From assembly GCA_028714375.1 (NCBI GenBank), contig JAQTMK010000004.1, forward strand, positions 3,608 through 67,607: a DNA stretch of 64,000 nucleotides, in the 5' to 3' direction. Positions 3,565-45,305 of the stretch are shown piece after piece. The notes beneath the pieces are model-generated. The model was not told the DNA's origin. It worked only from the letters and a program-made list of their open reading frames with translations, and ran no database searches. The first letter of the stretch is position 1. Every line of letters starts with the position of its first letter. The translations under genes and the position numbers were made by a program. The DNA is from Candidatus Nanoarchaeia archaeon (GTDB lineage: Archaea > Nanobdellota > Nanobdellia > SCGC-AAA011-G17 > JACPNG01).

Positions 3565-4834
3565 AAATTTTATTTTTTCCAAACAGATATGGCTGAAGAA
3601 CTTTTGGGATATTAATGCTACCATCTTTGTTCTGATGGTTTTCAAGTATAGCAACCATTGCTCTTGAAGTTGCAACCATGGTGTTGTTTAAAATATGAAC
3701 ATAATCTCTTGATGTATCTTTCTTAAGATATTTTATGTTTAATCTTCTTGCCTGATAGTCAGTGCAATTACTTGCAGAGGTAACTTCCTTGTATGAATCC
3801 TGTCTTGGGAACCAGGCTTCGATATCATACTGCTTTGCCTGTTTATCACCAATATCACCTGAACAGATTTCTATTACTCTGAATGGAATTTCCAAACTCT
3901 TGAAAAATTCCTCTGATATCTTTTGTATTTCTTCAAGTATTTTGTAAGAGTCTTCTGGTTTTGAAAATATAACCTGTTCTACTTTATTGAACTGATGCAT
4001 CCTAAACAGTCCTTTTGTATCAACTCCACGACTTCCAATTTCTTTTCTAAAACATGGGGTTACTGCACAAAGTTTTATAGGAAGTTCATCATAATCTATT
4101 TTTTCATCTTTGAAAATTGGAACCAAGGAATTTTCTGCAGTTCCTATCAAATATAAATCTTCATTTTCAATTTTGTATATTACTTCTTCAAAGTCAGCCA
4201 TGTTTACTACTCCTTCCATAGTTTCTTTTCTTATCAATATTGGAGGAATAACAACCTTGAAACTTTTTTTAACCAAAAAATCAATTCCATATCTTTGCAG
4301 TGCTAAGTCTAGTAATGCCAGATCTCCTAAAAGATAGTTAAATCCCTGTCCTGCCAGTTTTCTTCCTGCTTCAAAGTCAGCGATCTTTAATTCTTCTGCC
4401 AGATCTGAATGTGATTTTATTTCAAAATTCTTTTTTTCTATTTTTCCAACTTTTCTTATCTCCTTATTTTCAGAAGCATCTTTTCCTTTTGGAACAGACT
4501 CATGAAGAATATTTGGAAGTCTTAGCATATAATAATTAATTTCATTCTGAAGATTCTCCATAGAAGTTTCTCTTTCTTTGATTTTTTCAGGAAGTTCTTT
4601 TGCTTCTTTAAGAATTGGTTTAACATCCTTGTTTTGTTTTTTTAGAGTATTAATTTCCTGTGCAAGTTCATTTCTTCTTTGCCTTAAATCATCTGTTTCT
4701 TTTTTTAGATCTCTTACTAACCTATCTTTTTCAATAATTTCATCAATCAAATTTATTTTATCTTCTTTGAATCTTTTTTTAAGATTATCTTTTACTATTT
4801 TTGGGTTTTCTCTTAGTAATCGTATGTCTATCAT
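3554..4834 (-). CDS. serS: Seryl-tRNA synthetase
   Basis: N-terminal coiled-coil tRNA-binding arm (MIDIRLLRENPK...) and a class II core (FRKEIGSRGVDTKGLFRMHQFNKVE, TSASNCTDYQARRLNI). Confidence 0.95.
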   Translation of the reverse strand: MIDIRLLRENPKIVKDNLKKRFKEDKINLIDEIIEKDRLVRDLKKETDDLRQRRNELAQEINTLKKQNKDVKPILKEAKELPEKIKERETSMENLQNEINYYMLRLPNILHESVPKGKDASENKEIRKVGKIEKKNFEIKSHSDLAEELKIADFEAGRKLAGQGFNYLLGDLALLDLALQRYGIDFLVKKSFKVVIPPILIRKETMEGVVNMADFEEVIYKIENEDLYLIGTAENSLVPIFKDEKIDYDELPIKLCAVTPCFRKEIGSRGVDTKGLFRMHQFNKVEQVIFSKPEDSYKILEEIQKISEEFFKSLEIPFRVIEICSGDIGDKQAKQYDIEAWFPRQDSYKEVTSASNCTDYQARRLNIKYLKKDTSRDYVHILNNTMVATSRAMVAILENHQNKDGSINIPKVLQPYLFGKNKISRD

Positions 4835-33370: not shown

Positions 33371-34711
33371 ATGATTGAAATTTTTACCATTGGCGGATAT
33401 AATGAAGTCGGAAAAAACATGACTGCTATCCGTTACAATGATGAAGTTGTCATAGTTGACATGGGTTTTTTTCTTCCTAAATTAATTTCCTTTGAAGAAG
33501 AGGGCGGAGACAGAAGAAACTTAACTGAAAAAGGATTAATTAAACTCGGAGTTTTTCCTGATGACACTATCTTGAATTCTATAAAAAATAATGTTAAGGC
33601 AATTGTTCTTGGACACTGTCACTTGGACCATATTGGTGCTGTTCCTTTTTTAGCTCCAAAATATAACTGTTCGGTTTTTGGGACTCCTTACACTATTGAA
33701 GTTTTAAAAACCATGATGGATGATGACAAGATGAGGATAAAAAATCCTTTGGTTGCTATGAATCCCGGTGTTGTCAAGAAAGTTTCTGCACATATTGAAA
33801 TTGAACTTATTAATGTTACACATTCTACACCCCAGACTGCAATGGTTGCAATTCATACTCCTGAAGGCATTATAATTTATGCAAATGATTTTAAATTAGA
33901 CAGCCATCCTGTTATAGGAAAGAAACCTGATTTTGATCGTTTGAAAAAACTTGGTGATTCTGGTTTTGTTAAGGCTTTAATTTTAGATTCTCTTTATGCA
34001 GGTGATGATCGTAAGACTCCTAGTGAAAAAGTTGCACGTGAGATGCTTAAAGACGTAATGTTTGGAACTGAGAATACTGGTAATGCAATAATTGCTACTT
34101 CTTTTGCTTCACACATTGCACGTATAAAAAGCATGGTAGAGTTTGGAGAGAAGTTAGACAGAAAGGTTGTTATTCTTGGGCGTAGTATGATGAAGTATAT
34201 TGGTTCTGCTGAAAACCTTGGTATTGTTAATTTTAGCTCTAATTCTGAGATTGTGGGTTATGGTGATAAAGTAAAGAAAAAACTTACACACATACAGAAA
34301 GAAGGTAAGTCTAAGTATTTGATAATCTGTACTGGCGGACAGGGTGAGACTGGAGCTATTTTAACACGTATTGCAAATAACCAGTTACAGTTTAGGTTTG
34401 ATTATGAGGATCATGTTATTTTTTCCAATAAAACAATACCTGTTCCTGCAAATATTGAAGCACGTAAAAATCTTGAAAGAAATCTTAAGAACCAGAAGGT
34501 TAGAATCTTTAAGGACATACATGTTTCAGGACATGCTGGACGTGAAGATTTACGTGACTTGGTTAAAATGATTAAACCTTTGAACATAATTCCTGCTCAC
34601 GGTGATTCTGCTATGTTAAACCACATGATAGATTTAGCTGAAGAGATGGGTTATGTGAAAGGAAAGAATGTTCATTTTTGTTCTAATGGAAACAGAGTGT
34701 TTTTGAAATAA
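33371..34711 (+). CDS. rnj: RNase J (beta-CASP metallo-beta-lactamase ribonuclease)
   Basis: HCHLDHIG (HxHxDH), beta-CASP motifs, and a late HVSGHAGREDL. Confidence 0.9.
   Translation: MIEIFTIGGYNEVGKNMTAIRYNDEVVIVDMGFFLPKLISFEEEGGDRRNLTEKGLIKLGVFPDDTILNSIKNNVKAIVLGHCHLDHIGAVPFLAPKYNCSVFGTPYTIEVLKTMMDDDKMRIKNPLVAMNPGVVKKVSAHIEIELINVTHSTPQTAMVAIHTPEGIIIYANDFKLDSHPVIGKKPDFDRLKKLGDSGFVKALILDSLYAGDDRKTPSEKVAREMLKDVMFGTENTGNAIIATSFASHIARIKSMVEFGEKLDRKVVILGRSMMKYIGSAENLGIVNFSSNSEIVGYGDKVKKKLTHIQKEGKSKYLIICTGGQGETGAILTRIANNQLQFRFDYEDHVIFSNKTIPVPANIEARKNLERNLKNQKVRIFKDIHVSGHAGREDLRDLVKMIKPLNIIPAHGDSAMLNHMIDLAEEMGYVKGKNVHFCSNGNRVFLK
34679..34711 (+). repeat. Direct repeat copy 1 (last 10 codons plus stop of rnj)
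   Basis: 'tgttctaatggaaacagagtgtttttgaaataa' is identical to 35131..35163. Similarity extends upstream to 'gaatgtt' (34666) with a 7-nt indel. Confidence 0.9.
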
Positions 34712-34723
34712 AAATCTTATAAG

Positions 34724-35116
34724 ATGAAAAAATTAACAAGGCCTGAGGCTATAAAAATCGTTAAGGGATTTATTGATTCTATATTAGTTCATGAAGAATG
34801 GTATAAACAGATTTTAAAACATATCAAAGCCATAGTATTGTACGGATCTGTTGCTAAAGAAAAAAACCGGCCAGATTCAGACATAGATGTTTTAGTATTT
34901 GTTCCGTTAGCAATAGAAGAAAAATACACAAAAGGAGAATATTTCTATAATTATGACGGGTATGAGATAAATATGGTATTAAGATCAATAGAACGATTGA
35001 GAAAACTTGCTAAGGAAAATAACAATAAATTCCAAATAGAAGTGTTTAGACAGTCAGAAATAATAACCGAAACAGATGATGAGGTCAGAGTATTAATAAA
35101 AAAATTGGTTGGATAA
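34724..35116 (+). CDS. Nucleotidyltransferase-domain protein (MNT-like), cassette between the direct repeats
   Basis: LYGSVAKEKNRPDSDIDVLVFVP is the Pol-beta NTase GS..DxD signature. Confidence 0.8.
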   Translation: MKKLTRPEAIKIVKGFIDSILVHEEWYKQILKHIKAIVLYGSVAKEKNRPDSDIDVLVFVPLAIEEKYTKGEYFYNYDGYEINMVLRSIERLRKLAKENNNKFQIEVFRQSEIITETDDEVRVLIKKLVG

Positions 35117-35130
35117 GTTAAGGTGAATGT

Positions 35131-35163
35131 TGTTCTAATGGAAACAGAGTGTTTTTGAAATAA
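35131..35163 (+). repeat. Direct repeat copy 2 (non-coding duplicate of the rnj 3' end)
   Basis: Exact 33-nt match to 34679..34711. Confidence 0.9.
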
Positions 35164-35165
35164 TG

Positions 35166-35200
35166 TTTACTCTGGTTTATAGATATTTACTTTAGTTTAC
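35166..35200 (+). repeat. Four TTTAC/TTTAT motifs with exact 10-bp phasing
   Basis: 'taatgTTTAC tctggTTTAT agataTTTAC tttagTTTAC': the motif ends at 35170, 35180, 35190 and 35200, immediately after repeat copy 2. Confidence 0.7.
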
Positions 35201-35240
35201 ATATTTTTGAGTTGACTACAATCTGTAGTAGGCTTATTTT

Positions 35241-35771
35241 TTAGCTGTCCGATTTTTTCGGACAACTTAGGGTATTTGATTTTTTTTCAATTTGTTTAAT
35301 TTTTTCCCGTATTTTCTTGATTTCTTCAAGTTTTAAATTATTTTTGAATGCAATTATCTGGGGATTAAACTTCATTGCAATAGAAATCATCTCTTTGGCA
35401 GATTCTTTTGTTGCAGGATTGTTTTTAGTAGGAGTAATATAATATTGTTTGTCAATTCTTTCAACCTTGGCTTTTGAAAAAACAGAATGAAATTCTTTTT
35501 GATTAAAAAAATCTTTTAAAAGTATTGCTGCAGCAGAATGATTTTCACATTTTATCCCGCATTTGAAAAAGAGTGATAAAACATTGTTATACATGGAATA
35601 GTAGCTCTGAGTTACTGCACTCTCAAAATAATCATTATTAAAAGCCAGAATTGCAACTTCTCTGCATTCAATCCCTTTCTTCTCATAGGAAATTGCCATC
35701 TGTTCAGAACATTCAACAAGTTCTAGTTTCTCTTCTTCTTTTAGTTTATTTAAAAAATCCAAGCTTTTCAT
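35241..35771 (-). CDS. HEPN-domain protein
   Basis: All-helical, ~175 aa, with the A..DYFESAVTQSYYSMYN...ENHSAAAILL pattern. It overlaps the upstream NTase gene by 26 nt, a typical MNT/HEPN arrangement. Confidence 0.6.
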   Translation of the reverse strand: MKSLDFLNKLKEEEKLELVECSEQMAISYEKKGIECREVAILAFNNDYFESAVTQSYYSMYNNVLSLFFKCGIKCENHSAAAILLKDFFNQKEFHSVFSKAKVERIDKQYYITPTKNNPATKESAKEMISIAMKFNPQIIAFKNNLKLEEIKKIREKIKQIEKKSNTLSCPKKSDS

Positions 35772-36300
35772 AAAACCTTTCTCCTCCCTGGAGGATTATG
35801 TGGTTTTTTATGATTTCTTGGATTAATAAATCTTCTTTGTTAAATTCCCCAAATTTTACGCTAATCTTCTCATTAATATTATTAATCGTTTCTTTTACTT
35901 TTTTATCTATTGAATCTATATAGATATCTATATCACTGTCTTCTTTTGGATTGAATTTTGCATAACTTCCAAATAAAATAATCATTTGATTAGGATATTT
36001 TTGCGTTATTTCTTTGAATAATGGCTCCAGGGTATTGTATTTGCAAAGAAGTTTTGCAAGTTTGTAGTTTTCAGCGCTTAGAATGAAAGTTTTTGCAATA
36101 ATATTCTTTTTAATGAAATAAATATGATTTTTGCCTTCTTTATTATAATCTAAGATATTATACTGGCTTAATTCATTTAATATTAACTGTATTCTTGTAA
36201 GCGAGGTTTTTAGCTCTTTGGCTAGTTCTCTTCCGTGGAGATCTTTTTTTAACAAAGCGAGTAAAACTTCAAATTGATAATTGATTTTTATTTGTGTCAT
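35746..36300 (-). CDS. Winged-HTH plus nucleotidyltransferase (MNT-like) protein
   Basis: N-terminal wHTH (LHGRELAKELKTSLTRIQLILNELSQYNIL), then LFGSYAKFNPKEDSDIDIYI. A consensus 'aaaacctttaaatact' promoter lies ~25 nt upstream (leaderless). Confidence 0.75.
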   Translation of the reverse strand: MTQIKINYQFEVLLALLKKDLHGRELAKELKTSLTRIQLILNELSQYNILDYNKEGKNHIYFIKKNIIAKTFILSAENYKLAKLLCKYNTLEPLFKEITQKYPNQMIILFGSYAKFNPKEDSDIDIYIDSIDKKVKETINNINEKISVKFGEFNKEDLLIQEIIKNHIILQGGERFYEKLGFFK

Positions 36301-36346
36301 ATGAACTTTATAAAAGTCATTAGTATTTAAAGGTTTTGATAGGGTA

Positions 36347-36551
36347 GGTACAATTTGTACCCATCCTTTAGAATTGATTGGCGGAAATTTTCCGATTTTG
36401 GTATGATTTTCAGTTGGTTACATTTTGTAACCGGCTTGGTTTTTGAAATGATCTTTAACTGTACGATTTTATCGTATGGTTCAAATAGTCTCAGTTGTAA
36501 ACAAGGTGTTAACTACTGGTTTTAGTGTGTATTTTTACGGAAAATCTTCCG
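36347..36551. repeat. Array of five short inverted repeats with T-rich loops
   Basis: ggtacaa-t-ttgtacc (36347-36361), cggaaa-t-tttccg (36382-36394), ggttaca-ttt-tgtaacc (36416-36432), tacgat-ttt-atcgta (36462-36476) and cggaa-aatc-ttccg (36538-36551, followed by T6). Confidence 0.7.
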
Positions 36552-36556
36552 GTTTT

Positions 36557-36802
36557 TTAGAAGTAGAATTCTTTTACGTATTCAAAATTCATGCTGTTTA
36601 GCATCCCTGTTTCCAGATTATCCGGATATTCAGTATTCATTAAACTGTATGAGTATTCTGCTCTTAGTTCTCCTATGTTTCTGTAGTTTCCCTGTTTCAT
36701 TACTGTGTTTAGTTCTGGAATTGTTTCTTTATCATATTGTATTTGATTGAAAGAGATTCCTACAAGAAAAACTATCAGGATTATAGTTAGTATTTGTTTC
36801 AT
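36557..36802 (-). CDS. Small secreted or membrane-anchored protein, 81 aa
   Basis: N-terminal hydrophobic signal/anchor MKQILTIILIVFLVGISF. No family recognised. Confidence 0.45.
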   Translation of the reverse strand: MKQILTIILIVFLVGISFNQIQYDKETIPELNTVMKQGNYRNIGELRAEYSYSLMNTEYPDNLETGMLNSMNFEYVKEFYF

Positions 36803-36896
36803 TTTAAAGTTTTAATTTTTGGTTTTATTTAAAGGTTATGTTACGGAAGAGGGGAGTGAAAGAATTATATAACTAAAACATATTTTTAAGATAGAT

Positions 36897-36913
36897 TACA
36901 TTTTTAAAATGTA
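36897..36913. promoter_or_regulatory. Perfect 17-nt palindrome 'tacatttt-t-aaaatgta' upstream of the GHKL operon
   Basis: 8-bp arms, located 51-67 nt upstream of the ATG at 36964 and just upstream of the TATA-like 'catttaaataata'. Confidence 0.4.
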
Positions 36914-36963
36914 GTGATACATAATAGAAACATTTAAATAATAGTATATATCTAAATATTAAG

Positions 36964-37212
36964 ATGTTTAATAAGCAAAAAACAAAAATGGATCGTAAGG
37001 TTATAAAAGAAGAAAGATTTAAGAGGATTGCTAGTCGTAGAGTTCAAGAAATTCTCGATAAAATGAGATTATTAAAAAATTGTGCAAATAAATCTAATTA
37101 TTCTTATAATGAAGAACAGGTGAGAAAGATTATAACTACAGTAGAGGATGAATGGAAGAAATTAAAATTAGAATTTAGTAAAAATAAATCTAAAAGGGAG
37201 TTTAGTTTGTGA
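36964..37212 (+). CDS. Small basic helical protein, 82 aa (operon gene 1)
   Basis: ERFKRIASRRVQEILDKMRLLKNCANKSNYSYNEEQVRKII is predicted helical. Its stop is 1 nt before the next ATG. Confidence 0.55.
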   Translation: MFNKQKTKMDRKVIKEERFKRIASRRVQEILDKMRLLKNCANKSNYSYNEEQVRKIITTVEDEWKKLKLEFSKNKSKREFSL

Positions 37213-37213
37213 A

Positions 37214-37840
37214 ATGAATGACGAGGATAAAATAAGAAAATTCGAATCTGCTTTCAAAATAGAAGATATTAATATTGATAATGATCGGCTTATGGTCTAT
37301 GTTATTGATATATTGGAAGGAATGAAAATTGAACCAACTTTTGATAAGACTGTGGTGGCGGCATTTAAGATGTTTCCATCTAGATTTTCGCTTGTGGGTT
37401 TTAAAGAATATCCAGATGCAAAGCGAGTGCACGATTGTTTATTTCATTGCACTTATAAGACAAAAGGGTGGATAATTGGAAATGCTCAGAGTGGTTATAA
37501 AGTTTCTGATAAAGGAAAATATTACCTCGAAGAAATTCAAAAAATAATAGATAAGGAAATAGAATTACCTAAGACCTACCAAGAAAAAGTTCGAAGAAAA
37601 GAAAGAACAGCAATTGATTCCTTTAAGGAAACTAAAGCATTTAAAAAGTATTTTGATGGAGGAAAAAAGGATATTGATAAGGATGATGTGAAAGAGGCTC
37701 TAAACATTTTTAAATATGCAGATAAAAAAGATATAGAGAAAAATCTTTATAAATATCTTTCTTATGCGGAGATATTAGATGATAGATTGGCTTTAGACTT
37801 TTTAAATTTTATAAGTAAAAATAAGGAGAGGTTAATATAA
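37214..37840 (+). CDS. Hypothetical protein, 208 aa (operon gene 2)
   Basis: Normal composition and no nuclease or NTPase motif recognised. Its TAA overlaps the next ATG by 1 nt (TAATG). Confidence 0.55.
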   Translation: MNDEDKIRKFESAFKIEDINIDNDRLMVYVIDILEGMKIEPTFDKTVVAAFKMFPSRFSLVGFKEYPDAKRVHDCLFHCTYKTKGWIIGNAQSGYKVSDKGKYYLEEIQKIIDKEIELPKTYQEKVRRKERTAIDSFKETKAFKKYFDGGKKDIDKDDVKEALNIFKYADKKDIEKNLYKYLSYAEILDDRLALDFLNFISKNKERLI

Positions 37841-40053
37841 TGACGCTAGATTTAAGCAAATCTTTTAATAGAAAACCGGGTATTATAACCGAGAAATGGT
37901 GGGAAAGAACTGTAAAAGAAGCCTTTAAAAATGATCCTATAAGGATTATAATTGAACTAATAAAAAATAGTGCAGATAGTTATACTCAACTAGAAAAAAA
38001 AGAGAATATAAAACCCCCATTTAAAATATTAGTAGAATTCTCTTGTTGGCCAAGAAAAGCTCCATTCATAAAGGTAAAAGATTTTGCACAAGGCATGGAT
38101 AGTGAAAAATTAGAAAAAGCTCTTGCATATGGAGCAGAAACTTCCTTAGAAGATAAAGAAGGAGTTACAAGTGCTGAAAAAGGGATAGGATTGAAAGATG
38201 CGATGATGGCGATGGAAGAAAATCGTTTGGTAACTATAAAAGAGGATAAACTAAATGAACGTACTAAATATTCTAATTTTGATACAGGTGAAGGTCATAT
38301 TAATTATATCATAAAGAAAGAAGATAGAATCAAAATTGGTATACCTGAAAATGGGACAATTGTTCAAGGGAGACTACCGGAATACTTTCCAGATAAAAAG
38401 TTTAATACGATATGCAAACATCTTGCAAATCATTATATGATGTATAAACTTGTACAAATAGATAATTTTGATATTGTGTGTGTAGATACATCTACAAAAG
38501 AAGAATTAACTCTATCAAAATTATATGATCATCCTAAAATTGATAAAAAATTTGAAGTAATAAAGAAAGATATTGTTCTTCCATATCAAAATAGAGATTA
38601 TCATTTTTTAATTGAAATCAAAAAGTCAAATAAACCTTTGGAGTTTGGAAAACCCTATGGAAAAGCGGGTTTATATTTTTATTATGGAAATTACACAGTC
38701 TTGGATTTTAGTTTTGGAAATTCTAGATACCCTGAAATGAGGAGTTTCTTCGGAGAAATAAGAATGGTTATTGAGCCTTTAGTCAGAAAGGGGGAATTGT
38801 TTGTTGATGAAAAAAGAAAGGGTCTTAGTGATCATTCATTAAATGAAGAATTGCTAAAAGAAATTGATAAGATCGTAGCTAAAATTGCAGATGAACAGAG
38901 GGAAGTAACCAGTTATGTTTTTAAGAAAGAATCATGGATGCAAGAAGAAATGCAAAAAATATATCAGGATATAATTGGAAAGGGGAAAAAAAGTTTCCAA
39001 TTACCAATAAAACCCAAAAAATTTGAATTTGCAACCCCCCATACAGATGTTATGGAATTCGAACCAAAAAACATTTTCTTAATCATAAATTGTTCTATTA
39101 TTTCATCAGGAATTGAAATTTCTTTATTAACTAAAAATCAAAACTTAGATATAATCTCACCATCTAATAAAAAAATAATTATAAAAGAAGGAGAGACAGA
39201 TGAATCGGCTATAGAAAAAGATGGAGAAAAATTTATTGTTAGAATTATAAAAGTATATTCTGAAAAGAAAGATTCAGAGGATGAGATAATTGCTAGATTA
39301 GATGGTTATCACTCATCTAAAATTGGAATTTCTTTAATATCTAATCCGATATTTAATCCGAGGGAAGGGTTTGAATTTGCTCCAAAGGAAAATGGAGAAG
39401 TAACTATTAATGAAGGAGCGACAAAAAAAATTGATTTAGTTATAAGTCAATCATTATATGATGAAAAAGATAGAAAAATAAGAGTGGACAATTCCCATGA
39501 AGGAATAAAATGTGCAGGAAATTTTGAGATTCCAACAACAAGAAATTTAGAAATATACAAACTAAAGAATGTAATTAGATATCCCTTTGAGATATTGTCA
39601 AAACCTGGAGAAACAGAAGAAAGGAGCGGTAAGATTAAGGCTTTCTATAAAAATAAAGAAACAGAATTAAAAATTAATGTGATAAGCCCAGGGGGAATAA
39701 ATTTTAAAGGAGTGAAATTTGTTAAATCCGAAGGAACTCAAGAAATATCTGATTACAAGGATGATGGTTATGTTTATATTTATCAAAATCATCCTTTAGT
39801 AAAAAAATATAAAAAAGGAGATTGGCAAAATAAAAATGATTGTTTAACCTTTCTGGCGGATATTATATCTCGAGAATTTATTGAAAAAACAATCAGAGAG
39901 TCTATTAAATCTGGGAGATCAAAGTTTCAGATAATTAATCAGGATAATCCTGAGTTGGAGATAAGACAACATTTTGTTAAAGAATATTATGAAAAATCAG
40001 AAAGGATTCATGGAATTCAGATAACTTACCTAAAAACTGCAGAATTAAGATAA
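37840..40053 (+). CDS. GHKL/Bergerat-fold ATPase (HATPase_c_3-like N-terminus) with ~530-aa uncharacterised C-terminal region (operon gene 3)
   Basis: N-box IIELIKNSADS (E39/N43/D46), VKDFAQGMD (DxGxG-like, residues 81-87), and EKGIGLKDAMMAM (glycine-rich ATP-lid motif, residues 113-125). Confidence 0.75.
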   Translation: MTLDLSKSFNRKPGIITEKWWERTVKEAFKNDPIRIIIELIKNSADSYTQLEKKENIKPPFKILVEFSCWPRKAPFIKVKDFAQGMDSEKLEKALAYGAETSLEDKEGVTSAEKGIGLKDAMMAMEENRLVTIKEDKLNERTKYSNFDTGEGHINYIIKKEDRIKIGIPENGTIVQGRLPEYFPDKKFNTICKHLANHYMMYKLVQIDNFDIVCVDTSTKEELTLSKLYDHPKIDKKFEVIKKDIVLPYQNRDYHFLIEIKKSNKPLEFGKPYGKAGLYFYYGNYTVLDFSFGNSRYPEMRSFFGEIRMVIEPLVRKGELFVDEKRKGLSDHSLNEELLKEIDKIVAKIADEQREVTSYVFKKESWMQEEMQKIYQDIIGKGKKSFQLPIKPKKFEFATPHTDVMEFEPKNIFLIINCSIISSGIEISLLTKNQNLDIISPSNKKIIIKEGETDESAIEKDGEKFIVRIIKVYSEKKDSEDEIIARLDGYHSSKIGISLISNPIFNPREGFEFAPKENGEVTINEGATKKIDLVISQSLYDEKDRKIRVDNSHEGIKCAGNFEIPTTRNLEIYKLKNVIRYPFEILSKPGETEERSGKIKAFYKNKETELKINVISPGGINFKGVKFVKSEGTQEISDYKDDGYVYIYQNHPLVKKYKKGDWQNKNDCLTFLADIISREFIEKTIRESIKSGRSKFQIINQDNPELEIRQHFVKEYYEKSERIHGIQITYLKTAELR

Positions 40054-40064
40054 TTTAAAAATTA

Positions 40065-40874
40065 TTATTCTTTTAATCTACTCTTCCCATATCTTACATA
40101 TTTCTTTGAAATATCTATCCCTATACTCTTCCTATTTAGTTTTTTTGCTACCATCGATGTTGTAAATGTTCCTGCAAAAGGATCTAAAACTAAGTTTCCA
40201 GGATTACTACTAACTCTAATAAAAATTTCTATCAATTCAGGAGGGAGTTGGCAGGCATGCCATTTTTTTCTTTCTTTCCTTACATTCTTTAGTAAATTCT
40301 TTTTTATAATATCTGTTGGTCTTCCTTTTAGTTCAAATAACTCTAATAGATCTTTAATGTCTAAAGTATCATAAGCTCCCCTCCCTTTTGATCCATTTTC
40401 CAATCTGATTCTTACTTTACTAACTTCTGGATTTTTATATGGTTGGATTATTTCGCTACGATTAAAAGTATAATCTTTTCCTTTTGTTAAAAATAGAATA
40501 GATCTGTGACTCCTAGTCCAATTTTTTTTAGAATGTCCAACATTTGTTGGATAATGCCAAACTATCCATCTTCTTAGATGCATTTCTAATTCATCTTCTA
40601 AGAATGGGAGAATTCGAGCATTTAATTCCGGATAATTCATAATATATAAAGATCCGGTATCTTTTAGAATTCTATGTACTTCTTTTAGTCTCTCTTTTAA
40701 CCAATCTAAATACTCCTCTGGTTTTTTTCTATCTTTAAAATCTTTTTTTACGTAAGGAATGTTTTGGTTATAGGGAGGATCTGTGAAGATTAAATCTACA
40801 GAATCTGAGGGAAAATTTTTCATTACTTCTAAACAATCTCCACAAATAAATCTGTGAGGTTCCTCTTTTTTCAT
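40065..40874 (-). CDS. Beta-class N4-cytosine/N6-adenine DNA methyltransferase
   Basis: Motif IV DLIFTDPPY near the N-terminus and motif I VLDPFAGTFTT near the C-terminus (permuted beta order, N6_N4_Mtase type). Convergent with the GHKL gene across an 11-nt spacer. Confidence 0.9.
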   Translation of the reverse strand: MKKEEPHRFICGDCLEVMKNFPSDSVDLIFTDPPYNQNIPYVKKDFKDRKKPEEYLDWLKERLKEVHRILKDTGSLYIMNYPELNARILPFLEDELEMHLRRWIVWHYPTNVGHSKKNWTRSHRSILFLTKGKDYTFNRSEIIQPYKNPEVSKVRIRLENGSKGRGAYDTLDIKDLLELFELKGRPTDIIKKNLLKNVRKERKKWHACQLPPELIEIFIRVSSNPGNLVLDPFAGTFTTSMVAKKLNRKSIGIDISKKYVRYGKSRLKE

Positions 40875-41009
40875 TAGATTAATGAAATTTTACCATTTAT
40901 ATTTTTATGTGATCCCTTATAAGTGATCAATTTAGAATTTATTATTTAATATCTTGAACTATAAATAATAGCTATGCACGTTTGGATATAAACGTTTATC
41001 AAACTAATA

Positions 41010-41293: not shown

Positions 41294-42475
41294 ATGAAAT
41301 TTGCACATCTGGCAGACTGCCACATCGGAGGCTGGAGAGAACAAAACCTAAGGGATCTAGGCTTAAAATCCTTTGAAAAAGCAATAGATATATGCATAAC
41401 TAATCACACAGCTTTCATTCTAATTTCAGGAGACTTATTTAACACAGCTTTACCGCAAATAGAACTAATCAAGGAAACAGCAAGAATTCTAAGAAAAGCA
41501 AAAGAACACAACATAGACATATACATAATACCAGGAAGCCATGACTTCTCAAATTCCGGAAAAACAATGCTTGACGTATTAGAAAACTCAGGTTTAGTAG
41601 AAAACGTATTCAAAGTAAAAGAAAACAAACTAATAATAACTGAAGACAAGACCGGAGTAAAACTAGCAGGAATGTTAGGAAGAAAAGGCTCTTTAGAGAA
41701 AAAAGACTATGAAAACTTAGATTTTAAAGACATAGAAGAAGAAAAAGGATTTAAAATATTCATGTTTCACACAGCTCTGGAAGAGTTTAAGCCAAGCGAT
41801 TTAGACAAAGTAGACTGCATGAATACTAATGAATTACCTAAAACTTTCAATTATTATGCAGGAGGACATATTCATTACAGGTTTGAAACTAATTTCGGAA
41901 AAGGAAAACTGGTTTTTCCAGGAGCTTTATTCCCAAACAATTTTAAAGAACTTGAGGAATTCAGAAACGGCTCTTTTTATTTAGTAGATGACAACCTAAA
42001 CACAGAGTTAGTAGAAATTCCAATTAAAGAGGTTTTAAGCTATCATATTAACGCAAATGATAAAATACCGAACCAAATAACAGATGAAATATTAAACAAG
42101 GTAAATGATTTTAATGACAAGATTGTTTTGCTAAGAATTGAAGGAACTTTAAAGTCAGGAAAAGTATCAGATATTGATTTTAACCTAATTAATGAAAAAC
42201 TAAAAGATTCTTACATTGTTTTGAGAAATACTAACAAACTAGAAACAAAGTCTTTTGAAGAAGTGGAAATTAAAAAAGGTAATGTGGAAGACATAGAAGA
42301 AAACATTGTAAAAGAGCATTTAGGACAGATTGAGATTGAAAACGAAAAGCATTTGATTGATGTTCTGATGAAAGTTTTAAACGAAGAAAAGGAAGAAGGG
42401 GAAAAAGTCTATGATTTTGAAGCTAGGATTTTTAAGAATTTTATTGAAGGGTTAAAACTGAAAGAGATGTTCTAA
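41294..42475 (+). CDS. mre11: Mre11 double-strand-break repair nuclease
   Basis: Calcineurin-like phosphoesterase motifs DCHIG, GDLFN, PGSHD and GGHIH. Confidence 0.9.
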   Translation: MKFAHLADCHIGGWREQNLRDLGLKSFEKAIDICITNHTAFILISGDLFNTALPQIELIKETARILRKAKEHNIDIYIIPGSHDFSNSGKTMLDVLENSGLVENVFKVKENKLIITEDKTGVKLAGMLGRKGSLEKKDYENLDFKDIEEEKGFKIFMFHTALEEFKPSDLDKVDCMNTNELPKTFNYYAGGHIHYRFETNFGKGKLVFPGALFPNNFKELEEFRNGSFYLVDDNLNTELVEIPIKEVLSYHINANDKIPNQITDEILNKVNDFNDKIVLLRIEGTLKSGKVSDIDFNLINEKLKDSYIVLRNTNKLETKSFEEVEIKKGNVEDIEENIVKEHLGQIEIENEKHLIDVLMKVLNEEKEEGEKVYDFEARIFKNFIEGLKLKEMF

Positions 42476-42536
42476 AATCGTAAATATTAATTTCTAAAAT
42501 AAAAAGATTTATTAGTTAAGTTTATCTAAAAGTGGT

Positions 42537-43196
42537 ATGAGAAAAACCAAGATAATTTGGTATCTATTAACATTTATCCCAATCTTACTATTAATTTTAG
42601 GTTATATTTTTCCCTCACATTTTTTTGGAAATCAGGAAGTAATAAGGAATTTTGTAACTAAATTTGGGGTTTTTGCTCCTGTTGCTTTTATAATTCTTCA
42701 AATTCTTCAGGTTATAATCACTCCGTTTAGCCATTATGCAGTTTCAATCGCAGGAGGATATATTTTTGGAACATGGTATGGATTTCTCTACAATTGGATT
42801 GGAAGAGTAATCGGAACTGCAATAGCATTTTATCTTGGAAGAATATTTGGAAGAAAAATAATAAAACATGTTGTTAAACCTGAAACTTTGCAGAAATATG
42901 ATCATTTTATTGAGAAAGGAAGAGTATTATTGTTTTTAGCTTACTTCTTGCCTTTATTCCCAGATGATGAGATATCTTATCTTGCTGGAGTCTCTGCAAT
43001 AAATCCAAGAGTTTTTCTACCTTTAATGATTATAGGACATATTAGCGGAAGTTTAAGTTTAGCGTATATTGGAAATGGGATACAATCAATCAAAGAGCCA
43101 ATGTTCATAATATTGTCCTTAATTACCCTGATTGGGGGAATTTGGTTTGTGTTGCATTACAGAAAAATAAGAACAGCACAGCCTATTAAAACATAA
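42537..43196 (+). CDS. TVP38/TMEM64 (DedA-related, VTT-domain) membrane protein
   Basis: Five to six TM helices with P.S......GY.FG and FLPLFPDDEISYLAG motifs. Confidence 0.7.
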   Translation: MRKTKIIWYLLTFIPILLLILGYIFPSHFFGNQEVIRNFVTKFGVFAPVAFIILQILQVIITPFSHYAVSIAGGYIFGTWYGFLYNWIGRVIGTAIAFYLGRIFGRKIIKHVVKPETLQKYDHFIEKGRVLLFLAYFLPLFPDDEISYLAGVSAINPRVFLPLMIIGHISGSLSLAYIGNGIQSIKEPMFIILSLITLIGGIWFVLHYRKIRTAQPIKT

Positions 43197-43250
43197 AATA
43201 TATTCCTTTACAACTATACTTATAAATTCTCTTTACAAACAAAACCTTAG

Positions 43251-45305
43251 ATGATAATAAACAAAGTAAGATTAAGAAACATAAGAAGTTACTTAATTGA
43301 AGAAATTGAATTTCCTGAAGGTTCTACATTATTGGCAGGTGATATTGGTTCTGGTAAATCTTCAGTTTTATTAGCAATAGAGTTTGCCTTGTTTGGAATA
43401 AGAAAAGGAGAGCTAAGCGGAGATTTACTTTTAAGAAAAGGGGAAGATGAAGGTTATGTGGAATTATTTTTAAGTGTGGAAGACAAAGAATACATTATAA
43501 AAAGAAACCTGAAAAGAACTTCTGCGGGGGTTTCACAGGAATCAGGATACATAATACATGAAGGAGCTAAAAGAGAAGGGACTGCACAGGAACTAAAACA
43601 ATATGTATTAAACATTCTAAACTATCCAAAAGAACTTTTAACAAAAACTAAATCTTTGATTTACAGATATACAGTTTACACACCGCAGGAAGAGATGAAA
43701 TTGATTCTTTTAGGTGAAAAAGACGCAAGATTAGATACTTTAAGAAAGGTTTTTGGCATTGACAAGTACAAAAAGATAGGGGAAAACTCAAAAATAATTA
43801 CCACAAAGATAAGAGAGAAACAAAAAGAGATTGCTGGTTTTATTTCTGATTTAAACCAAAAAATAGACCAGAAAAACAATTATGAAAAAGAACTGAACCA
43901 GATAAAAAATAACATAAAAATAATAATACCAAAATATGAAGAACTTAATTTAAATCTTAAAACAAAAACTAATTCTATAAAAAATTATGAAGAAAAGATA
44001 AGAGAAGAAAACGAACTGAAAAAGAAATTTGAATTAAATAACCTAAGAATAAACACAAGTTTAGAAAAAAGAAAACAAAATTCTGAGAAATTAATGCAGT
44101 TGAGTTTACAAATTGAAAATCTTAACAAAGACATTGTTGTTTATGACTTGGAGGAAATAAGGAAAACAATTGTTTTTAAGAAACAGGTTCTGGAAACAGA
44201 ACAAAAAGAATTAGACATGATCAAGAATGAAATATCAAGATGCTTGCTTCAGGAAGAGCAGTCAAACACACTAAAGAAAGACATTGAAGAACTAGATCTA
44301 TGCCCTCTATGCAAGCAGGAAGTCACAACTGATCATAAAGACAAGATAAAAAGGCAGGAATATGAAAAACTAGACAAACTTAATCTAAAAAAACAGGAAT
44401 TAATAGGGAAAAAAAGCGGTATTGAAAACAAGATTGATGTTCTAAATACTGAACTTGAAGAACTTAAAGAAAAACAAAACAAAGCTGAACTGGTTTTATA
44501 CAAGAAGAAAAACTTAGATGAAAAAATAAAAGAAAAAAGCAAAATAGAAAACGAAATTGAACTAACAAAAAAAGAAATAGGAATTTTCAATGAATTAAAC
44601 AATGAAATAAATGAAAAGCTGAAAAACTTCAAGGGTTTGGAAGAATTGTATAACAAAGAAAGAGAAGAGTTAGAAATTCTAAGAGAAAAGTTTAGGAAGA
44701 TTGAAATTGAAAAAGTAAGATTTGAAACTGAGATTAATTCAATAAACATAAACATCCAGAAAATAACAAAAGAAATAACTGAAAGAGAAAAACAAAGAGA
44801 CAAATTAAATTACCTGACTAATCTTAAACTATGGATTGAAGAATCTTTCCTTAACATGATGACCCTGATGGAAAAACAAGTCATGATGAAGGTACATTAT
44901 GATTTTGACAGTTTATTCAGGGACTGGTTTAATATTTTGATGAACAGTGAAGATATTACAATAAGTTTGGATGAAGAATTTACACCAAAAATATTACAGA
45001 ACGGACATGATATTGATTATAGTTTCTTATCTGGTGGGGAAAAAACTGCTGCTGCCTTGGCTTACAGATTAGCATTAAATCAGGTAATTAATAACTTAGT
45101 CTCTGAACTAAAAACAAAAGATTTGATCATTTTAGATGAGCCAACAGATGGTTTTTCATCTGAGCAGTTAGACAGAATGAAATTAGTCTTAGATGAATTA
45201 AAGATAAAACAGATATTAATTGTAAGCCATGAAGCCAAAATTGAGAGTTTTGTGGACAATACAATAAGGTTCAAAAAAGAGAATCATGTCAGTAAGATTT
45301 TTTAG
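43251..45305 (+). CDS. rad50: Rad50 ATPase (short coiled coil)
   Basis: Walker A GDIGSGKSS, zinc hook CPLC in mid coiled coil, signature LSGGEK and Walker B LILDEPTDG. 684 aa. Confidence 0.9.
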   Translation: MIINKVRLRNIRSYLIEEIEFPEGSTLLAGDIGSGKSSVLLAIEFALFGIRKGELSGDLLLRKGEDEGYVELFLSVEDKEYIIKRNLKRTSAGVSQESGYIIHEGAKREGTAQELKQYVLNILNYPKELLTKTKSLIYRYTVYTPQEEMKLILLGEKDARLDTLRKVFGIDKYKKIGENSKIITTKIREKQKEIAGFISDLNQKIDQKNNYEKELNQIKNNIKIIIPKYEELNLNLKTKTNSIKNYEEKIREENELKKKFELNNLRINTSLEKRKQNSEKLMQLSLQIENLNKDIVVYDLEEIRKTIVFKKQVLETEQKELDMIKNEISRCLLQEEQSNTLKKDIEELDLCPLCKQEVTTDHKDKIKRQEYEKLDKLNLKKQELIGKKSGIENKIDVLNTELEELKEKQNKAELVLYKKKNLDEKIKEKSKIENEIELTKKEIGIFNELNNEINEKLKNFKGLEELYNKEREELEILREKFRKIEIEKVRFETEINSININIQKITKEITEREKQRDKLNYLTNLKLWIEESFLNMMTLMEKQVMMKVHYDFDSLFRDWFNILMNSEDITISLDEEFTPKILQNGHDIDYSFLSGGEKTAAALAYRLALNQVINNLVSELKTKDLIILDEPTDGFSSEQLDRMKLVLDELKIKQILIVSHEAKIESFVDNTIRFKKENHVSKIF

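Follow-up and report, generated by a model that had tools for sequence, protein, structure and literature searches.

A mainly archaeal, modular gene cassette pairs a paraMORC-like GHKL ATPase with a winged-helix protein and a swappable DNA methyltransferase

We analyzed a 64,000-nucleotide (nt) stretch of contig JAQTMK010000004.1 from a Candidatus Nanoarchaeia archaeon (hereafter the window) with a focus on four genes that lie between positions 36964 and 40874. Three of these are open reading frames (ORFs) packed on the forward strand: gene A (36964-37212) encodes a basic protein of 82 amino acids (aa) that looks helical by eye (p82), gene B (37214-37840) encodes a protein of 208 aa (p208), and gene C (37840-40053) encodes an ATPase of 737 aa. 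Direct reading of the sequence places a 1-nt gap between A and B (TGA-A-ATG) and a 1-nt overlap between B and C (TAATG), as described in an earlier note that was made from the letters alone. Gene D (40065-40874), an ORF of 269 aa on the reverse strand, is convergent with gene C, and the two stop codons are separated by 11 nt. Comparison with related loci (designated by L numbers) reveals that these genes form a cassette of an undescribed modular family in which B and C are invariant, A is exchangeable, and D is swappable. The ATPase gene is followed by a methyltransferase (MTase) or another fourth module; in the lineage of the window and in most other branches, this is an MTase of family PF01555.

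The N-terminus of the gene C product comprises a GHKL (Bergerat) ATP-binding domain (residues ~1-200; 37840-38439, forward strand), which the earlier note had recognized by eye and which is supported by Pfam, by its motifs, and by structural comparison with Foldseek. HATPase_c_3 (PF13589) matched residues 36-144 with an E-value of 9.1e-7 and 29.4 bits (cutoff 25). In an alignment of 98 superfamily members, from which all conservation figures for gene C are taken, the motifs E39xxxN43xxD46, D81FAQG85, G115IG117, and N171-G-T173 were 88-100% conserved, with E39, N43, D46, D81, G85, G115, and G117 at 96-100%. Residues R202, D289, G305, R326, and G328 were conserved at 93-100%, of which R326, within a DEKRxGL motif, is the invariant basic finger of the transducer. 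The strongest conservation was confined to the ATP site and the transducer.

An AlphaFold2 model of the protein, built from 30 homologs (mean predicted local distance difference test score, pLDDT, of 81), was compared with structures in the PDB. Over 380-440 columns it aligned with the GHKL and transducer modules of GyrB 43K, ParE, Topo VI-B, MORC2, MORC3, SMCHD1, and PMS1 (E-values of 1e-8 to 1e-10; template-modeling score, TMt, of at most 0.50), including TMt values of 0.50 for MORC3 and 0.47 for MORC2. Because the model aligns with GHKL and transducer modules together, an S5-type transducer is predicted in gene C (residues ~205-385; 38452-38994, forward strand), where the model has an alpha/beta domain; the earlier note, which recognized no S5-fold signature after the ATP-binding domain, was thus mistaken on this point. 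According to the model, gene C is a GHL-type ATPase with an S5-type transducer, and it looks to be active as an ATPase, given that all GHKL motifs and R326 are retained and that the predicted fold matches those of GyrB, MORC, SMCHD1, and Topo VI-B.

The transducer is followed by an all-beta region with Ig-like beta-sandwich folds (residues ~392-650; 39013-39789, forward strand), in which DSSP assigned ~25 strands to the model and which matched Ig-like, BIG2, BACON, and tail-protein domains in a Foldseek search of a viral library. The protein ends with a helical hairpin (residues ~652-737; 39793-40053 with the stop codon, forward strand), modeled as helices at 666-691 and 704-731, that possibly serves as a constitutive dimerization element, by analogy with the architecture of MORC, MutL, and Hsp90. 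Conserved residues in the C-terminal half are only hydrophobic or structural (F513, P515, L533, A601, and G619), and no polar residue is conserved there across the 98 sequences. A nuclease hidden within gene C is therefore unlikely. Searches of PDB sequences with the single sequence and with a profile returned nothing.

Membership in the MORC family proper was evaluated with the motif that defines it, GhXhhpXXRhl in the S5 domain (Iyer, Abhiman & Aravind 2008, PMC2292703). A regular-expression search detected this motif in none of the 98 superfamily members, and the corresponding strand reads GGLhhhh..x.V.D.T/S.F, without the Arg. Gene C is therefore paraMORC-like and not a MORC sensu stricto. 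Identity with Topo VI-B was rejected as well: it was the top Foldseek match, yet with a TM of 0.31-0.37 and a root-mean-square deviation (rmsd) of 22 Å, and PF09239 did not match. A bona fide Topo VI B/A pair is present separately in locus L083. Matches far better than those to any PDB entry were obtained in the BFVD viral library, where two uncharacterized giant-virus proteins, from Yasminevirus (A0A5K0UA26, 759 aa; E = 2.6e-19) and Hokovirus (A0A1V0SGC9, 702 aa; E = 6.2e-19), matched the whole gene C model over more than 800 columns. T4-type RIIA proteins in the same library matched the ATPase module.

In essentially every one of the ~80 loci with upstream DNA, the gene immediately before the ATPase gene encodes a homolog of p208 (E-values down to 1e-109), often with overlapping stop and start codons, and this homolog is retained in all deep branches (E-values of 1e-30 to 1e-50), where the GHKL proteins are 21-28% identical to that of the window. 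The view of the earlier note that the packed genes are one translationally coupled unit holds, and the operon is conserved as a functional unit. The AlphaFold2 model of p208 (pLDDT 81) comprises an N-terminal winged helix (~23-112) and a C-terminal helical domain (~128-207). Foldseek returned no PDB match at E <= 0.001, and the nearest folds were the winged helices of DtxR, IdeR, MarR, and PadR (~83 columns, rmsd 3.8). The model accordingly portrays p208 as a winged-helix protein, and this protein is the universal partner of the ATPase. We found neither a nuclease fold nor a conserved motif of catalytic type in p208, only the winged helix and a helical bundle, so that the hidden nuclease for which the earlier note had proposed structural searches of the ATPase and p208 was found in neither.

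The first position of the cassette is occupied by different families: p82-type genes in 11 loci, a family of ~160 aa (c160) in 29, and a family of ~300 aa (c300), a probable winged helix, in 8, with a PIN protein and a zinc-ribbon protein among the occupants in a few other loci. Comparisons with hhalign returned probabilities below 2% throughout, and homology among p82, c160, and c300, or with p208, was rejected; on these profiles, no fewer than three unrelated families can supply the first gene. Each of the three is found again in deep branches (c160 in L086; c300 in L084, L087, and L089; p82 in L085), and the occupant varies even within the subclade of the window, being p82-type in the window and L081 and c300-type in L005 and L082. 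The p82 family is itself widespread, with 119 homolog clusters at >= 54% identity, none of which carries an informative name. It occupies the first slot in L001, L009, L029, L058, L062, and L077 of the largest branch, and relatives were detected in L081 (50% identity) and in L085, which has a bacterial context (E = 9e-26). The 82-aa gene, which the earlier note had counted as part of the proposed system, is thus not a fixed part of it. No Pfam, PADLOC, NCBIfam, or PHROGs model matched p82, and an apparent kinship with a segment of the ATPase was dismissed as profile drift from one weak match that vanished with a clean profile.

Gene D is, on its sequence, a beta-class N6A/N4C DNA methyltransferase, as the earlier note had concluded. 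It matched PF01555 (N6_N4_Mtase; E = 9.4e-53) and PADLOC MTase_II (E = 2e-58), and motif IV (DPPY, residue 32) precedes motif I (FAGTFTT, residue 233), which is the beta-class order. In the subclade of the window (window, L005, L081, and L082; GHKL identity >= 58%), a convergent PF01555 MTase directly follows the ATPase gene in 4/4 loci, and the flanking genes differ among all four. The slot holds orthologs of gene D in L081 and L082, with 71% and 81% identity, respectively, but in L005 an MTase of 534 aa from PF01555 that is not orthologous to gene D. In this lineage, the MTase is therefore more than a chance neighbor. A PF01555 MTase is also the next gene in four further deep branches; it has the same orientation as the ATPase gene in L084 and L086, whereas in L089 and L090 the two genes converge. 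In L081 (10094-10309) and L082 (4512-4739), an additional ORF of 71-75 aa, with 76% identity between the two loci, starts across the stop codon of the ATPase gene and takes up the interval ahead of the MTase gene; it has no counterpart in the 11 nt between C and D of the window.

The distribution of this linkage was uneven. In the largest branch sampled (hereafter the big branch), the ATPases of which are 38-46% identical to that of the window, none of the 27 informative loci (at least 900 nt of downstream DNA) had an MTase after the ATPase gene, compared to a PF01555 MTase in 8/9 informative loci outside the big branch (Fisher p = 3e-7). The remaining outside locus, L085, has an NYN gene in this slot, and L087 is uninformative since its contig ends. 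Among 140 neighbors of ~45 big-branch loci, Pfam identified a single PF01555 gene, ~4 kb from the cassette in L026; the contig set of this branch also includes one MvaI/BcnI-family restriction gene. The MTase linkage is therefore real and recurrent, but not universal, and the A-B-GHKL core can work without an adjacent MTase. The gene linkage on which the earlier note built its proposal accordingly holds in most informative loci outside the big branch and is absent within it.

The linked MTases measure 269-534 aa, are encoded in either orientation, and carry DPPY, DPPF, or SPPY as motif IV; the spacing between ATPase and MTase genes varies from an overlap of 42 nt to a gap of 355 nt. Leaving aside the three orthologs of the window subclade, they share only 25-38% identity. 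The MTases of L089 and L090, for example, are 38% identical and their GHKL proteins 22%. Since MTase similarities do not follow the ATPase tree and L005 has a swapped MTase, these comparisons indicate that MTases were repeatedly exchanged between branches, a pattern that is typical of the specificity modules of restriction-modification (R-M) systems. Alternative fourth modules, namely the NYN-domain gene of L085 and a phosphatase-like domain fused to the ATPase of L084, fit a defense system with swappable effectors. The former (L085 8890-9507) follows an ATPase of 627 aa, and the latter is a C-terminal domain, related to protein tyrosine and dual-specificity phosphatases, of a 943-aa ATPase (L084 7001-9832).

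A word-indexed search recovered 80 full-length relatives of the ATPase, and an exhaustive profile search recovered 779 representatives (clusters at 50% identity) at E <= 1e-3, of which 174 were at E <= 1e-30. Among the 150 top-scoring profile matches listed, most are 700-790 aa in length and align end to end; variants of ~630 and ~940 aa also occur. The sources include Woesearchaeota, Nanoarchaeota, Micrarchaeota, Thermoproteota, Nitrososphaeria, and unclassified bacteria; the family is mostly archaeal and patchy in distribution. A pattern-based scan of 185,579 species genomes identified 3 loci. The cassette lies at a different genomic position in every lineage, and these varied positions and the mixed identity of its neighbors suggest that it is self-contained and mobile; with varying flanks and patchy taxonomy, it behaves as an accessory element subject to horizontal transfer. 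In the window, we found no tRNA gene within 10 kb and no direct repeat flanking the cassette, and thus no boundaries of a mobile element; the sole clean repeat surrounds the neighboring NTase gene.

Searches of Pfam, NCBIfam, PADLOC, PHROGs, and PDB sequences returned nothing named for the family beyond the GHKL domain, and no nuclease, helicase, or known defense-protein model of Pfam, PADLOC, NCBIfam, or PHROGs matched the 82-, 208-, or 737-aa proteins. The literature on an archaeal system of GHKL, winged-helix, and MTase proteins offered nothing beyond the general paraMORC concept. These results agree with the view of the earlier note that the system is undescribed and that its forward-strand genes encode no recognizable nuclease or helicase.

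The closest parallel is with the paraMORC and prokaryotic MORC proteins, GHKL and S5 ATPases that were predicted to act in R-M systems and among which ~70% of MORC neighborhoods hold a superfamily II (SF-II) helicase (Iyer, Abhiman & Aravind 2008, PMC2292703). Like these, the cassette ATPase has a GHKL domain with all ATP motifs, an S5 domain with a basic finger, and a family-specific C-terminal extension, and the family is sporadic and laterally mobile in distribution with DNA methylases in its neighborhoods. The combination of GHKL and S5 without the MORC motif, the C-terminal extension, and the PF01555 linkage place it with paraMORC proteins, a grouping that is loose and descriptive and is not defined by a model. 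Comparison with the described signatures of paraMORC1-5 showed that the ExxxH (2), RE-fold (3), TIR (4), and HxH (5) features are not among the conserved positions of the family. Unlike those systems, the cassette has no conserved SF-II helicase and no conserved RE-fold, HNH, or Vsr nuclease (an NYN gene occurs in L085 only), and it has an obligatory winged-helix partner, a variable first gene, an Ig-like non-catalytic extension, and a mostly archaeal distribution.

Other known systems share some of these features. GHKL-Shedu VcSduA (paraMORC3), a single-gene phage defense with a C-terminal DUF4263 PD-(D/E)xK nuclease (PMC12137116), likewise combines a GHKL ATPase with a clamp-like middle domain, but the cassette lacks the nuclease domain and has obligatory partner genes. 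Type III R-M systems similarly pair a beta-class PF01555 MTase (Mod) with an ATPase that possibly communicates along DNA, and their MTases are also exchanged; however, the cassette ATPase is of the GHKL type rather than an SF2 helicase, there is no PD-(D/E)xK nuclease, and the window MTase is separate and convergent. No REase or Res model of Pfam or PADLOC, such as a classical Type II or III R-M system would be expected to match, matched any cassette protein, although a divergent nuclease may have escaped recognition, and no ORF of at least 60 aa lies between gene D and the Mre11-like gene that follows it. Bacteriophage exclusion (BREX), and nuclease-free exclusion in general, also combines a site-specific MTase with an ATPase and DNA-binding proteins and no recognizable nuclease, but the cassette contains no homolog of PglZ, BrxC, BrxL, or PglX and gives no PADLOC hit for BREX, and one of its large branches lacks the MTase. 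The PglX-type methyltransferase of BREX is a large enzyme, in contrast to the small beta-class PF01555 enzyme of the cassette. Signature proteins of BREX, DISARM, MZA, and other systems in PADLOC were not identified: p208 had no match, and the ATPase matched MzaB with E = 0.035. MzaB, likewise a GHKL ATPase, was the sole defense-library model to score on gene C, at E = 0.02-0.035 and 10-13 bits over ~60 residues of the ATP site (NCBIfam cutoff 850), and gene C is not a member of that family.

The eukaryotic MORC and SMCHD1 proteins, which rank among the best Foldseek matches to the gene C model, offer a further comparison. They combine a GHKL and S5 module with non-catalytic domains and a C-terminal self-association element, as gene C appears to do, and they have functional ties to DNA methylation and to the silencing of foreign DNA. 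The cassette ATPase differs in having no CW domain, hinge, or long coiled-coil, in its low identity to these proteins (~10-14%), in lacking the MORC motif, and in being encoded in a prokaryotic operon.

Taken together, we lean toward the reading that the cassette is a defense system against foreign DNA, of paraMORC type and resembling R-M and BREX systems, that operates without a dedicated nuclease, and we infer that it would discriminate self from non-self. In such a system, D would methylate the DNA of the host, and B, possibly with A, would bind or scan DNA or regulate the operon. C would dimerize through its GHKL domains upon binding ATP, while held together at the C-terminal hairpin, and would thereby form a clamp that closes around unmodified DNA in an ATP-dependent manner. 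Such a clamp may then block replication or expression of that DNA or pass it to a nuclease encoded elsewhere, which is invoked because none is conserved in the cassette. A bolder form of this proposal, which we consider unlikely, is a widespread, archaea-centered form of immunity or policing of genomes in which an ATP-driven, MORC/SMCHD1-like clamp, loaded by the winged-helix protein and steered by exchangeable adaptors, would neutralize unmethylated foreign DNA without a nuclease of its own, by topological entrapment and silencing or via Mre11-Rad50. Were this the case, it would represent a prokaryotic counterpart of the eukaryotic MORC silencing of methylation-marked invasive DNA.

Several observations weigh against a defense function. 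No nuclease or other obvious effector is shared across the family: neither a catalytic fold nor a library match was obtained for A or B, and the C-terminal half of gene C, as noted above, has no conserved polar residue. The absence of a linked MTase from all 27 informative big-branch loci is not what strict self/non-self discrimination by methylation would be expected to allow. Relatives were not detected in IMG/VR by pattern scan, among INPHARED phages, or among PLSDB plasmids, and mobility is deduced only from varying contexts. Only six loci represent the deep branches, and the two peptide patterns employed in the metagenome scan favor the big branch. Lastly, defense genes are scattered thinly among the 140 neighbors, and many loci lie amid exosome, proteasome, aCPSF1, Topo VI, ribosomal, and metabolic genes.

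Defense-type genes nonetheless adjoin several loci, including HepT/MNT and TumE (L003), PIN (L032), and AbiEi/Eii with ScoMcrA_N (L086), and further neighbors comprise an integrase with Nmad3 (L084) and DndB-like (L090), SLFN_AlbA_2 (L085), and ParB with RadC-like genes (L087). Defense-type surroundings, for which the earlier note had proposed to look, were therefore encountered at several loci, with toxin-antitoxin (TA), Abi, McrA-like, DndB-like, and integrase genes, but not at the many that are embedded among housekeeping genes. These neighborhoods are suggestive of a conflict system without proving one.

The same neighborhoods bear on the alternative that the cassette is a chromosome factor with no role in defense, in which a MORC-, SMCHD1-, or MutL-like ATPase with a winged-helix loader would act in repair, recombination, or epigenetic silencing, perhaps in cooperation with Mre11-Rad50 and with methylation as a mark of strand or state. 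Its GHKL, S5, Ig-like, and C-terminal dimerizing architecture parallels that of MORC and SMCHD1, it has no nuclease, and several neighborhoods are of housekeeping character. In three loci that came by the arrangement independently, the cassette is followed directly by an Mre11/Rad50-like pair: the window (41294-45305), L041 (5103-11885, with NurA and HerA), and L032 (4568-8537, together with L037). This adjacency arose more than once, because the cassettes of L032 and L041 are 62% identical while their Mre11 and Rad50 proteins are 23-26% identical, and it could be due to chance or to an insertion hot spot, or it may point to a functional tie in which Mre11-Rad50 supplies the missing nuclease. 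Other repair genes lie near the cassette in L081 (ExoVII and an XPD-like helicase), L085 (RuvABC), and L083 (Topo VI and a HerA-like gene). Such genes are, however, common in small archaeal genomes, and their adjacency may be due to chance or to a hot spot. The sporadic occurrence of the family (the 3 loci among 185,579 species genomes), its changing position from lineage to lineage, the shuffling of A and of the MTase, and the frequent adjacency of TA and Abi genes weigh against such a chromosomal role, which we regard as unlikely. In L032, the ATPase gene and the Mre11-like gene are separated by a 689-nt spacer (3880-4567) that is GC-rich relative to its contig (36% GC) and looks structured; it had no Rfam match at the gathering threshold.

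A further alternative is that the MTase is an independent, solitary gene that merely shares variable regions with a self-contained A-B-C unit, which would then have no relation to methylation. In its favor, the big branch shows that A-B-C can do without an MTase in cis, the phylogeny of the MTases departs from that of the GHKL proteins, and the convergent MTase of the window is a separate transcription unit. Yet a PF01555 gene is the very next gene in 8/9 loci outside the big branch, spanning five or more deep branches, when the background is one such gene, ~4 kb away, among ~45 big-branch loci, and the non-orthologous MTase of L005 sits in exactly the same slot. We judge an orphan MTase to be quite unlikely. 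Least plausible of all, and in our view very improbable, is the idea that the cassette serves an integrated mobile element as a selfish module for addiction or maintenance, for example one based on R-M-like post-segregational killing: variable locations, a nearby integrase (L084) and ParB/RadC-like genes (L087), an MTase with a non-MTase partner as in addictive R-M systems, and the lower GC of the window island would suit it, but searches of viral contigs, phage genomes, and plasmids turned up no relative, no element boundaries surround the window cassette, and addiction and defense are not mutually exclusive.

Few defense systems beyond CRISPR and R-M are recognized in Archaea, and in DPANN in particular (PMC12988326). 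The cassette defines a large unnamed family with a modular grammar that consists of an A slot, a winged-helix B, a paraMORC-like C, and a swappable fourth module. The general concept of a paraMORC engine in R-M systems was already proposed by Iyer et al. (2008), and the cassette differs from it in having no helicase and no nuclease. What is new is a well-delimited variant of this theme, unusual in its modular grammar, that is widely distributed, mainly among archaea, and has so far gone unannotated. If the cassette is a defense system, it adds a nuclease-free, methylation-linked mechanism built on a GHKL clamp and provides a tractable prokaryotic model for the MORC-type coupling of methylation state to DNA silencing that was predicted by Iyer et al. 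(2008). The MTase-linked and MTase-less branches represent a natural experiment on self-recognition.

In the window, the cassette lies between a gene for RNase J (33371-34711) upstream and genes for Mre11-like (41294-42475) and Rad50-like (43251-45305) proteins downstream. The intervening genes encode a solo nucleotidyltransferase (NTase) of 130 aa (34724-35116), a HEPN protein (35241-35771), and an adjoining NTase with a winged helix-turn-helix (35746-36300). These NTase and HEPN modules (34724-36300) match the PADLOC candidates PDC-S09 and PDC-M05A, which are listed among prevalent candidate defenses enriched in Archaea in a recent survey (PMC12988326). A perfect 34-nt direct repeat (34678-34711 and 35130-35163) brackets the solo NTase gene, and the upstream copy coincides with the end of the RNase J coding sequence, including the stop codon; by its sequence, the repeat resembles a duplicated target site or attachment site left when the NTase gene alone was inserted. 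The NTase and HEPN modules and the insertion scar that the earlier note had placed between rnj and mre11 were thus located. From ~35 to 41 kb, the region of the NTase/HEPN genes and the cassette, the GC fraction is 0.28-0.29, compared to ~0.31-0.33 upstream and <= 0.31 downstream, which fits acquired DNA (~35000-41000).

The intergenic region upstream of gene A (36803-36963, forward strand) holds a TATA-like element and a palindrome. The former, TTTAAATA (36933-36940), lies ~24-31 nt 5' of the p82 ATG and could be a candidate promoter, at a distance in keeping with a leaderless archaeal transcript. The palindrome, TACATTTT-T-AAAATGTA (36897-36913), lies ~50 nt 5' of the p82 start and is a possible operator, although palindromes with 8-nt arms are not unusual in DNA with 28% GC. 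An alternative start codon of p82 at 36988 would yield a protein of 74 aa, and the gene call of the source contig itself uses this internal ATG.

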